Assembly (NCBI GenBank): GCA_010093815.1
Contig: ML996576.1
DNA: 64,000 nt
Source of the DNA: Pseudovirgaria hyperparasitica
Taxonomy: Eukaryota
Direction: 5' to 3' (one strand)
The translations under genes were made by a program, and so were the position numbers. Shown one piece after another: positions 1 through 5,581 of the stretch. The notes beneath the pieces are model-generated. The model had not been told where the DNA came from. It saw nothing but the letters and a program-made list of their open reading frames with translations, and made no database searches. The stretch's first letter is position 1. Every line of letters starts with the position of its first letter.

Positions 1-411
1 CGATTGCATTACCTGGTATTTCGGCCGTCGACCGCGGCAGTGAAGGTCGACCGGATTGGCGGCAGTTCACCTGTGAGGCCAGCAGGACCAGCAGCGCTCG
101 TGTAATCAATCGTCAACGCACAACTTTGTTTCGAACAGCTCTGGCATTTGGTCCACGTCTTTGTGAATCCTTACAGCAGCTGACATACAGATGACGATGG
201 AGTTTGATGTACGTGAGGCTACGAGACGGGCCATGATGTTTGAGAGGTGTGGCGCTCCAGACCAGTGAGACCCTTGATCATGGGTCCTATGTTGCTGCCC
301 TTTGCTGATTGAAGAAGTTGTATTGAGTAGAAGTTGAGTCTGTAAAAGATAACTTAAGTATAGAACACTAAGTTCTAGTATTACTACAGCGAGAGTAGAT
401 CTTTCTATACT

Positions 412-445
412 TATCGTGGACGGTATGTGTCAGCGGGCCACACTT
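412..445 (+). repeat. Left terminal inverted repeat
   Basis: 34-bp match to the reverse complement of 5041-5074. Confidence 0.95.
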
Positions 446-573
446 TTTTTTTGCCGAGGGCACACACCTTGAAAGCATACTCATATACATCAAACCTACT
501 CCCCCCCTCTCTAAATATCCCTCTCTTCGTACGTAATACGTGCCTATCTATATATATTTTCTCTCTTTATATA

Positions 574-2200
574 ATGGCGTAATAGATAGCCTATCTCTAG
601 ATGGAGATTATCTTAAAATATACCTCTAGTTATACCTAGAATGATCTCCTAGCCTAGATTAAGCGTGTACATAGTATTATAGTATCCTATCGTACGCTTA
701 AGCGCTATTTCTCTATATAGAAGATTTAAAAGGACTCTTCTTTACTTCCCTCTTCCGTACGAGAGAGCCTATAGAATAGAATCCGTACTCTTACCCTTAA
801 ACTAGCTCTTCTAGATACTAAGATTATTCGGATCCTTTAAGAAGAAGGGTTTAAGATCTTACGGAGTTCTCTATATTACTATTATATAGATATAGGTATC
901 GTATAAAAGGTACGGGGTATTAATATATAATAGGCTAAAAGTAAGAAGGTAATACAGCTCGTATAGGAAGGCTTAGAGTTAGGAGTAATTAATAGGTTTA
1001 GTCGAGGCCTACTCCATACATATTTCCTAGGAGCTAGAGTCTAGATTACACGGTATCTATACCCTTCTATCTATATATAAAGACTTATTCTAAGAATCTA
1101 TCTAGAGATTGGCTATTTTAGGCTATAAAGATCTTAAATCCAGAGGGCGTACGACGCCGCTATTATGATTTTCAGCGCTATAGAGGCTAGTATATTATAA
1201 AAGGTCCTAATTATATCTAGAGTATAGATAGGTACCATAAGCTTAGCTTATACGGTATTAAGATCTATGCCTATATAGATATATACTTAAGATATATTAT
1301 CTAGGCCTATATTAGTATCTTATCTACTATAGCAGTTAGTTATCTCTTTTAGTTTCTAGAAACTTTAAGAATTAGAGGTATCTAGCCACGCTTCGTACGA
1401 AGTGATAGAGGTAGTAAGATAACTTATATAGTAAATATTTAGTGGAATCTCCGCCAGGTTAATAACCTAGAGATTCTACTAAATTAATACTAGATATTTA
1501 GGATAAGTATATCTAATTAAAGGATTAAGGCTTAGTAGGCATAGCTTTCTAAGGCACTCTTATTCCGATAGAGGGTATGTATCGTACGGTAGTATATTAT
1601 ACTTAGCTAATAGATATTTAGAACTTCTTCTTAGAGCTTAAGTAGAGAGGTATCTTTAATATATAGAGTTATATAGATCGGATTACTATTTAGGTAATCT
1701 ATATCCCAATTCTCTATACGGAAGTTTCAAGCTTCGTATAGATATAGAATTAGTATCCTATTTAAAAATAGAGAGATCGACTATCTACTATCTCTAGACC
1801 ACCCGTACGAAATTACTTTATACTAGCTAAAGGTATTAAACGTGGAGTAGTACCTATTAATTAAGAGGCTCTTACTACTATCCGAGGCTAGGTAGGAGCT
1901 TAGGATATAGATATATATCTACTACCTAATATACTACTATAGTATACGAACTAGCTTAAAGATCTTAGCTTTAATAGAGGTATACCGCTTCGTACGGCTA
2001 AAGAACGGAGAAGTCCATTTATGGATATCTATGTTCAGCTACGCCGTAGGATTTAGGACTATATCTATACTAGAATAGCCCCTCGGCTAGAAGTCCTAGT
2101 ATATCTATATCTAGATCCTAATTAGTTTATAAGTATTATTCTTCCGTACGAGAATAAAGAGTGGTATACTAATAGACTATATAGGGAACCTCTCTTAAGA
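574..2200 (+). pseudogene. RIP-mutated DDE transposase (Clr5-like N-terminus plus integrase core); 3' end approximate
   Basis: Reading through RIP stops gives YRTLKRYF, RGLLHTYF, an intron at 1053-1105, GPNYI*SIDRYHKL..GIKIYAYID (first D), PRFVRSDRGS (second D) and SN*RIKA** (NQRIEAWW before RIP, catalytic E). Confidence 0.85.
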
Positions 2201-2470
2201 ATGTTAAGGCGTCTAATCTTAATAATAATAGGGTAGATAAAGGATAATCTAGGAAGTAGCGTCATACGGGAGTACTTTAGTTATTCTATAACTTATAGCC
2301 CTATCTCTCTTTTCTAATATTCTCCTTATATAAAAACCTTTCCACTCTTATCTTAAATAGCTATACCAGTATTAAATACTTTCTATAACTACTACCCTAA
2401 AACTAGGACGCACCACTCTTTATACGAAGTAGCTACCTATCTAGATTACTAGTAAACCCTCGTTATTAAT

Positions 2471-3830
2471 ATAGAGATTATTAATCTTACTTCATCCCTA
2501 ATCGGATCTCCCTCACCTTATCTAAGATTATATATACTAAATACTTAATCCCTTACTCTTCGTACGAGTGTACCTCCTCTAAGCCAGCTAGTAATTATTA
2601 TTCCTAAGGCATAAACTTAATATCTTCTTATACTATAGCCACCGGCTAGAGTAGATACCGTATAGATAATTACTCGTATAAGAGGAAACATCCCGCTTAT
2701 TAAATAGGAAAGACAAGCATCTATATATCGTATGACTATATCTTATAGTGGAAAGAAGAAGAGGGATAGCAAGATATTCCTTTCTATATACTACTATGTT
2801 ACTATATATATAAAGGAAGGAATAGTTCTAAGAATAATAGGCTATAGTCGTACATGGTTAACTCTCTCTCCCCTCTCTTATTTTATATACTTATTTACTT
2901 AATAGAAGCTATAATAATCCCGGTAGTTAATACCTATTTCTAAGATATTATAAGCTTCGTACAAGATATACTTCTATGGGAGTTTAGAGTATCTCTATAG
3001 CTAAATAAGTTCAAGGCCATAGATTCTCTATATATCTCTACTAGTATTAAGGGCTAGTAGAATAAACTAACTAACCTTCTAAATTCCATGTACGAGAAGT
3101 ATATAGTGGATGAGTTCTTTATATATAGTAAGCTTTTCGAGGGAGAGGGTACTATAAAGAAGCTAATCCAGGTCTATATATATAGATAGGTATTAGAGGT
3201 AGTGGAGAATAAGATTAAGAGCCTAGCACCATCTATATAAAAGAGGCTAAGGACTAAAACAATCTAGGATAAGGATCCCTTCTAGGATCTAATTTAAGAC
3301 CTAGAAATCCAGCGTCTTATCCGGAAGGCAGTATCCAAGAGAAGTTATATAAAGGTTAAAACTAAAGGAGAGTCTCGTACGCTAAAAATAAAAATCAAGA
3401 AAGAGCTTAAGTTAGAGACGCCTAAGGATATCAAGAATAAGCCTTCTTACCCCTCTCTAAAAGAGAAACTTCATATATTAGATCTTACTTATACGAGTAG
3501 TACTAAAGGCTCTCCCCCTATACTACCTAGTTCTTCTAGTCTTTCTATATAGCTAATATCCATAGTAGAAGCTGAAACCTCTATACGATAATCATCCATT
3601 AAGAAGGAAGGTAGAGAGAGTAATAAAGAGGATGATATTACCTAGAATTAATCTATAGGGATAATAATAAGGTCAAAAGGGAAAGGAAAAGAGTCTTAGT
3701 AGAGAAAGCCAACTAATTATATAGATTTAGGAGCTATTACTCCTCGTATAGAAGAGAATAGCAAAGTAGATATTCTAGTATACTCTAAAATTTTAAAGTT
3801 TTTCTTTCGTACGAGGGGCTTAAAGTCATA
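2471..3830 (+). pseudogene. Relic second ORF of the transposon, K/E-rich C-terminal part; ends approximate
   Basis: Frame begins ATA GAG ATT ATT AAT CTT ACT TCA TCC (de-RIP MEIIDLTSS); in the stretches translated, stops are TAA/TAG consistent with CAA/CAG/TGG mutation. Confidence 0.5.
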
Positions 3831-3861
3831 TAATATAATATATACTAGTGCTAGACTAGGC

Positions 3862-4884
3862 CTAGTGCGGGGCTAGGCTCCCACATTTAATTCTACCTAA
3901 GCTCCACTTTAGCCTTACCTTTAATACCTTTAACCTTACCTCTAAAACTTTAAAATTCTCTCTTAACACCTCGTATAAAGCTATTATAGCTTTAAATTCT
4001 TTCTCTAGCCCTCTAGGCATCACCTCTTATATCTAGTATCACTAGATCTTCACTAAATAGGCGGATAAGATCCTTAAAACCCCACCCGGCGCCACTAATT
4101 CTGACCCTAGTCTTTATATAGGCTAAGCTCCTGCCTTTAGCCTTATTAGATCGCCTACACCTACTACGTACGAGTAGGTATTCTTCTATAACCCTATTAT
4201 AGCTAATAAGCTATTAGAGATCTTTACCTTTAGTATTCGTACTAGCTATTCTAACTATAGATCTTTAATACTAACTTTAGTATAGAACCTAATCATTATA
4301 TAAGCTACTAATTGGCCTATTCGAACATGGGAGAATCGCGCTATATATAATAGCACCCTTACTCTAGTTATCGTACGCCGCGGTGCCCTTAAGGCTAAGG
4401 CTCTCTTATTATAGCGGGCTTCATATATAAAGGCCTTTATTATCCACTCTCGCGGTTAGTAATACCTTCTTTAGAATTAGTTATCGTATATATACTAATA
4501 TTAAACCTAGGGTTTAAGAATACTATACCATGCGATAGATATATTCGTGCCTATAATAGTATAAATGAATTTAAGACGTACGTAGGCTATATTAGTCTAT
4601 ATAGCTACTTTAATAATACCTACTCTAACTATATATATACCGAAGTAACTACCCGCTATAGTAAGAATTATAAGATTAAGGATATAAAGGATCTCTCGTA
4701 CGACGAGTTTACGCGCCGTTTCCCTAATAGTCTACCATAGCCCCGCCCATCTTTAGCTAGTAAGCGTGTAGTAGGTAGCCTTAGCAGCCCTCCTAGCGTA
4801 AAACGTATCACATAATCTTAGGAAAGAACTGGTTAGCATGGATTTCTAGGGAGATAGGTGTCGTACGACACATAAAGGTTACAT
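3862..4884 (-). pseudogene. Relic third ORF of the transposon, coiled-coil-like C-terminus
   Basis: Minus-strand frame from ATG 4884 with RIP-type stops; distal segment reads LEKEFKAIIALYEVLRENFKVLEVRLKVLKVRLK; middle part not resolved. Confidence 0.4.
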
Positions 4885-5040
4885 TATAAATATATAGTAG
4901 TAGAAATTAAAGAAATCTATACTTAAATCCTATAGAAATCTTAAGCTAATAACTTTACCTAATTAATACTATTAGGTCTAGAAGGGACTTCTATAGAAAA
5001 TGGCTGTAGAGACTTCTAACTTCTAACTTTTGAGTTTTAG

Positions 5041-5074
5041 AAGTGTGGCCCGCTAACACATACCGTCCGCGGTA
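5041..5074 (-). repeat. Right terminal inverted repeat
   Basis: 34-bp match to 412-445, followed by TSD TATACT. Confidence 0.95.
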
Positions 5075-5581
5075 TATACTCCCTTATACTTAGGTTATTC
5101 ACTTACTCTAGATCTATATCTAATCTTAGTCTCTCTGGTAATAGTATAGAGAGAGACTTCATATATATTAAGTTATTAGTAGAACTTAAGATATACTAAA
5201 TCTTGAAGAGTCCTTATATAATCCTTAAGATTATCTAAGGTCTTACATATAGAAATATCTTATGATAATGAAAAGTATTAAAAGAATCTTATAGTATAGG
5301 GATCTTGCTATAATATAGAGAGGGATGTTAGTAGTGTTCTAGATGATAAATGTAGTTAGGCCCAAAGCAACGCTAGATCGTATACGGACTAGCGGAATAC
5401 CATGTCAACCCACGACACGACGCAAGCGGATGGTCTTGCTTGTGAAGGCCAGAAACAAACCGATTCTGCAACGCACTGTATATCACAAACAACACACAAT
5501 CAACCCATCCTCGACCCGCCCCAGACGACCGAACCTCCCCTCTCACTCTCCCCCTCCCGGTCACTCATCCACCTCTCCAGC

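Follow-up and report, generated by a model that had tools for sequence, protein, structure and literature searches.

The window analysed here, a 64,000-nucleotide (nt) stretch of contig ML996576.1 (GenBank assembly GCA_010093815.1) from the Dothideomycete Pseudovirgaria hyperparasitica, contains a DNA transposon of the IS3EU type with 17 exact copies of the palindrome CGTACG between positions 528 and 4867; the remaining 59 kb of the window contain 12 copies, for a total of 29. One gene in the window is 99% identical to a P. hyperparasitica protein. The 17 copies appear to be left over from an array in which the 8-bp palindrome TCGTACGA recurs at even spacing, and which a fungal IS3EU lineage keeps along the whole interior of the element. 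The array is kept at the DNA level through synonymous codon choice, and probably consists of selection-maintained docking sites for a dimeric, sequence-specific DNA-binding protein, for which we infer a binder and a purpose below.

The array in the window and in intact relatives

Word counts in the AT-rich block that holds the transposon (300–5350) are far above expectation. In 500 Markov simulations per order, built on this block, CGTACG is expected 0.34 times at order 1 (maximum 3), 0.74 times at order 2 (maximum 4) and 1.86 times at order 3 (maximum 9), and it is the most over-represented hexamer of the block (17 observed and 0.77 expected, z 18.5). The block has 36 CGTA and 31 TACG, of which only 19 and 14, respectively, are not part of a full site, so the excess is a property of the whole hexamer. 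The host DNA of the window has 12 copies in 58.6 kb, which is about the chance level, and a genome-wide repair or mutation bias is therefore not the cause. Five of the 17 sites are full TCGTACGA palindromes, with T before 11 sites and A after 10. Neither the window sites nor 197 sites of relatives show palindromic or conserved sequence more than one base outside the core, and no tandem or internal repeats underlie the spacing of the sites in the window element.

Within the transposase gene, the sites at 1148, 1394 and 1804 are read as x-Val-Arg, that at 1991 as Arg-Thr and that at 2145 as Pro-Tyr-Glu, and site 1583 is inside the 47-nt intron. A preliminary description of this DNA had listed the same 17 positions, quoted a series of gaps between them, and reported a 14-bp palindrome and five decay products; the positions are all exact, the gaps are correct, the palindrome (GTGTCGTACGACAC) is present at 4858–4871, and all five decay products are in the window. 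It had also placed the sites in different codon phases and outside coding sequence and had concluded that they are not a protein motif, a view supported by the three transposase phases, the intron and the other non-coding sites.

Relatives were collected as 80 metagenome loci by scanning contigs with an alignment (A1) of 24 transposases; metagenome contigs were also scanned for a 22-nt word of the inverted end, with no match. Sixteen of the loci hold 4–39 copies of CGTACG each and the other 64 hold 0–2, for a total of 243 against 35.7 expected, and the top hexamer is CGTACG or TCGTAC in 13 of the 80. Locus L001 has 39 copies in 4,316 bp (0.41 expected), L066 has 22 in 4020 bp, L031 19 in 5888 bp, L008 18 in 5107 bp and L004 15 in 1519 bp, with 12 each in L002 and L032 and 10 each in L033 and L036. 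Across 197 sites, the preceding base is T in 161 and the following base is A in 147, and positions farther from the core show no conservation, so that the unit is the 8-bp palindrome TCGTACGA. The sites span exons (in three codon phases), introns, spacers, and downstream open reading frames (ORFs) on both strands; there are none in the inverted ends of either the window element or L008, a complete element. A hAT-family transposase gene that adjoins the IS3EU element in L031 (215–2548, minus strand) has two copies of CGTACG only, and acts as a built-in control in which the array stops at the element.

The spacing of intact arrays is even. The first ten gaps of a 21-site array in L066 are 132, 170, 151, 295, 129, 142, 124, 131, 118 and 162 bp, and the later ones are 129, 135, 146, 132, 136, 109, 127, 111, 151 and 127 bp. 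Among 20,000 random placements per locus, none is as even as this array (coefficient of variation of the gaps, CV, 0.27), the 17-site array of L031 (CV 0.28) or the 39 sites of L001 (mean gap 95 bp, CV 0.47), and P is <0.003 for each of L033 and L006. When gaps from ten non-redundant loci are pooled, 52 of the 145 are 120–160 bp long, which is the mode, and intact arrays have about one site per 95–150 bp. The 17 survivors in the window have a gap CV of 0.65 (P 0.06) and a Rayleigh R of 0.53 at 202 bp, with P 0.43 over periods of 60–420 and P 0.035 for the 190–210 band alone. The 200-bp period previously proposed is not significant across all periods, and intact gaps are about 95–150 bp; the roughly 200-bp pattern of the window is a RIP-thinned remnant of a denser array (RIP, repeat-induced point mutation). 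Adding 19 one-sided decay candidates, a class not clearly above chance, would bring the mean gap in the window to about 124 bp, close to that of the relatives. What stands of the earlier proposal is an intrinsic array at about the nucleosome scale.

Codon choice, site decay and the contribution of RIP

The codon choice is evident when array loci and their array-free relatives are compared. For Arg-Thr, CGTACG is the spelling used in 43 of 62 pairs in array loci and in 10 of 158 in array-free relatives; x-Val-Arg is written with the word in 24 of 42 cases in array loci and 3 of 112 in array-free loci, and [SPTA]-Tyr-[VADEG] in 14 of 15 and 8 of 53, respectively. Sites recur in homologous transposase columns (43, 101, 153, 179, 209, 235, 257, 278, 321, 347 and 355 of P0003) and in all three phases. 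Window site 1394, for example, encodes the Val-Arg just before the catalytic RSDRG, in a column common to sites of L001, L004 and L036. Downstream ORFs of L001 (2829–3362 and 3582–4094) are rich in Arg-Thr, with SLRTT repeated and ALSRT occurring twice, and the accessory protein sequences of this locus are visibly shaped by the array, on both strands.

Sites are also lost. Three decayed sites in the window are recognized by alignment to relatives or to other genomic copies (Table 1), and at 4372, where the window has CGTACG, other genomic copies read TGTACG; the states of sites in other copies come from 40 of the 562 variants, and hence from few places. Close relatives without intact sites have TGTACG, CGTATG, CATACG or CGTACA at homologous places, and L018, L003 and L067 have a 3–4-fold excess of GTAC and many half-sites. 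The window has 19 one-sided half-sites; the expectation is 7.2 at order 1, 11.9 at order 2 and 17.3 at order 3, so that they are not clearly above chance as a class. The decayed sites in the window, in other copies and in relatives show that the sites are mutable and that the window array has been thinned. Since RIP does destroy sites, resistance of their context to RIP is rejected as the origin of the array. The form of the word deaminated at both CpGs, TTGTACAA, is enriched in L040–L042 and L067, where the transposase frame still seems open (ORF 295–1401 of L042); it represents either an array that has decayed or a functional variant free of CpG.

It is extremely improbable that the array is a by-product of RIP, with CpG spared and CpA converted to TpA such that the word is created or merely survives. 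RIP does turn CGCACG or CGTGCG into a word with TA at its centre and tends to leave CpG unchanged, and the window copy is heavily RIP-mutated. However, the precursors (CG[CT][AG]CG only) are too rare: the window's own 58.6 kb of ordinary DNA contain 37, or 2.9 per 4.66 kb, with a maximum of 8 per 4,660-bp stretch, and RIP simulated on this DNA in five settings, one of which reaches about the GC, CpG and TpA content of the block, yields 0.1–2.2 CGTACG per 4.66 kb. Scarce precursors and a low simulated yield indicate that the ancestor was already rich in CGTACG. RIP indices are normal in most array-bearing loci. Precursors and CGTACG copies are nearly equal in number in these loci, so the sites are written exactly as CGTACG, and RIP itself destroys them. 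Two outcomes that the preliminary description had named as refuting its proposal did not occur: homologues without RIP carry the word, even more densely than the window does, and simulated RIP alone does not produce the array. RIP as the origin of the array is refuted by the simulation yield together with the dense arrays of these relatives.

Candidate readers and roles of the array

Related elements of other subfamilies carry other dispersed words. L011 has pairs of GACTATTAC 12 bp apart, L012 has pairs of ACTACCACA and L013 has pairs of CCTAATAC; L026 (760–6102) has about nine copies of the 10-bp palindrome GCTGATCAGC, and L022 (418–2453) has seven dispersed copies of TCGGACGA, one letter from the CGTACG word. 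Dimeric DNA-binding proteins read palindromes as well as direct pairs that are spaced by one helical turn. In L011, L012 and L013 there are 9–13 dispersed pairs of 9-bp words each, spaced 11–13 bp and in either orientation, also within the transposase gene, and even L011 and L013, which are sister elements, have different pair words. In a quick maximum-likelihood tree of the transposases (79 of 81 rows), the window element groups (support 96) with L001, L002, L004 and the decayed L003, L017, L018 and L027, and well-supported branches force at least five gains or losses of the motif.

Each palindrome would be a docking site for a protein dimer and, since every nucleosome length has one site or more, the protein would coat the entire element. 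Such a coat would most plausibly serve to keep the chromatin open and transcribed and to resist silencing, although the sites might alternatively serve in assembly of a transposition complex or in self-insertion immunity. The likeliest reader would be the element's own DUF3716 protein, with the Clr5/helix-turn-helix (HTH) domain of the transposase or a host activator as alternative candidates; a protein of the element itself is favoured over a host factor. A cysteine-rich DUF3716 protein is encoded near the far end of the element in L001, L008 and L042, and L066 and L070 have weaker likeness to it. DUF3716 was not found among the scanned ORFs of 18 other loci of other types (72 of 172 ORFs of at least 100 aa), a survey from which ORFs that overlap the transposase, part of the antisense ORFs and every ORF of L047, L050 and L064 were excluded. 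The window has a possible relic of the gene with a weak profile match (Table 1), and Pfam finds no DUF3716 in its six frames read with X for stops. REP9/Styx of Zymoseptoria, an IS3EU element, has accessory DUF3716 genes according to the available text of two reports (PMC8232023, PMC10853768); that DUF3716 binds DNA is a guess. In the available text on Pseudocercospora fijiensis, a 19-bp cyp51 promoter repeat with TCGTACGA as its core raises expression with copy number, as seen by promoter swap (PMC6637983), so TCGTACGA can act as a protein-read cis element.

Several points weigh against a docking array read by the DUF3716 protein. The gaps show no helical (10–11 bp) phasing, which argues against tight cooperative stacking. 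The link between DUF3716 and the motif comes from few loci of about two clades, and the possible relic in the window shares its strand with the transposase, unlike the DUF3716 genes of L001, L008 and L042, which lie on the opposite one. An AlphaFold model of DUF3716 (predicted local distance difference test, pLDDT, 71) has no match in a Foldseek search of PDB and a best Z of 2.1 in a VIA search; as it matches no solved fold, the fold gives no support for or against DNA binding. Finally, the repeated gains and losses on the tree could mean convergent use of a host factor and not of an element-encoded partner.

A wider form of the docking-site reading, which we put forward tentatively as a possibility, is a self-coating lineage in which subfamily words throughout the element, coding sequence included and less than a nucleosome length from one to the next, would be read by a zinc protein of the element (DUF3716 or its counterparts) that blocks heterochromatin. 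On this view the TCGTACGA repeats of cyp51 in the banana pathogen would be accounted for by the shared word and perhaps by a shared reader. It is rather doubtful that the reader is instead a conserved host transcription activator, with the transposon filled with a host enhancer word so as to stay expressed. The yeast sterol element TCGTATA (read by Upc2/Ecm22), which we take to resemble a half-site of the word, would fit such a host reader, and one word is found, patchily, across transposase clades that are only about 40% identical, as expected of a stable host reader. The core position of TCGTACGA in the Pfcyp51 promoter repeat, where more copies give more expression in the available account (PMC6637983), points the same way. 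However, enhancer words do not normally recur evenly every 95–150 bp across coding sequence, there is no excess in the host part of the window (12 in 58.6 kb), and sister subfamilies with other words in a like dispersed layout fit co-evolving element-encoded readers better than a host activator.

The word is unlikely to serve transposition itself, either as an internal transposase-binding scaffold that joins the ends or as a marker of self-insertion immunity. Many DNA transposons carry multiple transposase-binding repeats, and the window element makes 6-bp target duplications of which TATACT has the Y-R-T-A-C-N shape of a RIP-decayed CGTACG site; but a single duplication is no evidence of target preference, and a target duplication looked for around the L008 element was not found. 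The inverted ends, which the transposase must bind, are without the word, and the sites are not concentrated near the ends. Palindromes without a dedicated reader, acting as a structural or epigenetic signal (the two CpGs as a methylation sensor or sink, or nucleosome positioning), are highly unlikely to account for the array. The spacing is close to nucleosome size, decay falls at CpGs, and methylation matters to the superfamily, some IS3EU families carrying demethylase (TET/JBP) genes according to the available text of PMC12730594. A strict 8-bp palindrome without flank preference is nevertheless the signature of a sequence-specific dimer and not of a bendability signal, and the words of other subfamilies include CpG-free ones.

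The transposon and its relation to known systems

The block 300–5350 has a GC content of 0.34, a TpA/ApT ratio of 1.57 and a (CpA+TpG)/(ApC+GpT) ratio of 0.36, and in the rest of the window these ratios are 0.65 and 1.26. In contigs of four public runs, of which X3 and X4 barely cover the element, word depth is 1000–5400 within the element and about 280–330 in the flanking DNA; the copies part immediately beyond 412 and 5067, and differences between copies in run X1 comprise 474 transitions and 26 transversions. The high word depth and the transition-dominated differences identify a multi-copy family mutated by RIP, and the high TpA/ApT and low (CpA+TpG)/(ApC+GpT) are likewise those of a RIP-mutated repeat. 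Contigs of X1, X2 and X4 join 5067 to 415 with 11 other letters between (in X4 within a 12-kb contig), a junction that could represent abutting copies, a two-ended mini-element or an excision circle. AT-rich RIP-like sequence continues at 300–411 and 5081–5350, about 110 and 270 bp past the transposon ends; these flanks are single-copy by contig depth, and may reflect RIP leakage or an older, more diverged repeat into which the element inserted.

The transposase was found by Pfam on six frames with stops read as X, and HMMER searches with it give 545 relatives at E<=1e-3. Those that were scanned have an N-terminal Clr5/HTH domain followed by rva_4/rve, and the named ones are all fungal. IS3EU elements have an integrase-type DDE enzyme, inverted ends >30 bp and a 6-bp duplication, as described in the available text of PMC12730594 and PMC8232023; the window element has a DDE core, inverted repeats >30 bp and a 6-bp target duplication, and its initial designation as IS3EU-like is supported. 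It ends TATCG...CGGTA and the relative L008 starts TACGG; rust-fungus IS3EU families end TAYGG..CCRTA in the available text of PMC12730594, a pattern from one fungal group.

Table 1. Features of the IS3EU-type transposon and its CGTACG array (window coordinates).
Feature	Position	Strand	Evidence
RIP-mutated IS3EU-type DNA transposon, 4,663 bp, multi-copy in genome	412–5074	+	Inverted ends, target duplication, composition, word depth
Target-site duplication TATACT, left copy	406–411	.	Same as 5075–5080; adjoins inverted end
Target-site duplication TATACT, right copy	5075–5080	.	Sequence read directly
Left terminal inverted repeat, 34 nt	412–445	+	91% complementary to 5041–5074; other genomic copies diverge just before 412
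Right terminal inverted repeat, 34 nt	5041–5074	-	91% complementary to 412–445
CGTACG array, 17 surviving sites	528, 691, 756, 1148, 1394, 1583, 1804, 1991, 2145, 2561, 3376, 3808, 4167, 4372, 4577, 4697, 4862	no strand	Exact word count
Weakly matched upstream part of transposase gene	823–1010	+	tblastn, columns about 85–148 of P0003; frame differs from core; weak
Transposase exon with integrase-type (rva_4/rve) DDE core, RIP stops throughout	1068–1574	+	Pfam rva_4 E 5.8e-5; tblastn 37–43% identity
Putative 47-nt phase-0 intron, GTATGT...TAG	1575–1621	+	Frame shift between tblastn segments ending about 1574 and starting 1622; splice signals
Transposase C-terminal exon	1622–2098 (end about)	+	tblastn to P0003, P0009, P0010, frame +2
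RIP-decayed site TATACG	1249–1254	.	Aligns to CCGTACGG in L001, L004, L002, L018, L036, L060
RIP-decayed site CGTATA	1735–1740	.	Aligns to TCGTACGA/G in L001, L004, L002, L060
RIP-decayed site CGTATA	2675–2680	.	Two contigs of other copies have C at 2679 and G at 2680 (CGTACG)
Possible DUF3716 gene relic, RASYIKAFIIHSRG block then stretch with Tyr for family Cys	4328–4662	+	hmmsearch A2 profile 9.8 bits, E 1e-4 among six frames; weak

HIP1 (GCGATCGC) of cyanobacteria is an 8-bp CpG-type palindrome that is many-fold over-represented within genes, in all frames and genome-wide. The CGTACG array resembles it as an 8-bp CpG-type palindrome over-represented in genes in all frames but, whereas HIP1 is genome-wide, the array is confined to the element, evenly spaced and eukaryotic; a genome-wide over-representation of the HIP1 type is absent from the window, with 12 sites in 58.6 kb of non-repeat DNA. 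The Ac/Ds, En/Spm and Mutator transposons have subterminal transposase-binding repeats within a few hundred bp of their ends and outside coding sequence. They share with the window element multiple short, often CpG-containing words in a DNA transposon, which here too may be bound by protein, but the CGTACG sites span the whole interior and avoid the ends.

Other IS3EU elements, REP9/Styx included, are alike in their integrase-core DDE transposase, inverted ends >30 bp, 6-bp duplication and accessory DUF3716 gene (clear in relatives L001, L008 and L042, with a possible weak relic in the window), but no internal palindrome array is mentioned in the available text of PMC8232023, PMC10853768 and PMC12730594. 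The 19-bp Pfcyp51 repeat TAAATCTCGTACGATAGCA contains the same 8-bp palindrome, is also from a Dothideomycete, and is a copy-number-dependent positive cis element; as far as its available description goes, it differs in being a short tandem cluster in one host promoter and not an even array in a transposon. No description of such an array was found in searches of the literature on IS3EU, DUF3716, CGTACG, RIP, or evenly spaced palindromes in fungal transposons. The signature, TCGTACGA every 95–150 bp, is a simple means of finding such elements and their RIP-eroded remains, and the array might link transposon biology to a known fungicide-tolerance promoter element. A protein-read coat, if true, would be an unusual instance in which a mobile element rewrites the codon usage of its own genes to carry a regularly spaced DNA signal, and would suggest a testable function for DUF3716, a domain widespread in fungi.

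The closest parallel is with the VANC anti-silencing proteins and their target motifs in the VANDAL transposons of Arabidopsis (Hosaka et al. 2017, PMC5735166, in its available text). The comparison with VANC targets drawn in the preliminary description is apt, since other subfamilies carry other words: both systems have a transposon with many copies of a short word and related elements with different words, and in both a sequence-specific protein may counter silencing along the element by self-recognition, which for the CGTACG array is a proposal. VANC targets are non-coding and often tandem repeats in the available text of PMC5735166, whereas the window sites are in exons, introns and spacers with no tandem repeat. 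The array further differs in that the palindrome is laid out evenly by codon choice, in a fungal IS3EU element without a VANC homologue. If the protein-read coat is true, it would be the first fungal counterpart of these plant anti-silencing systems.

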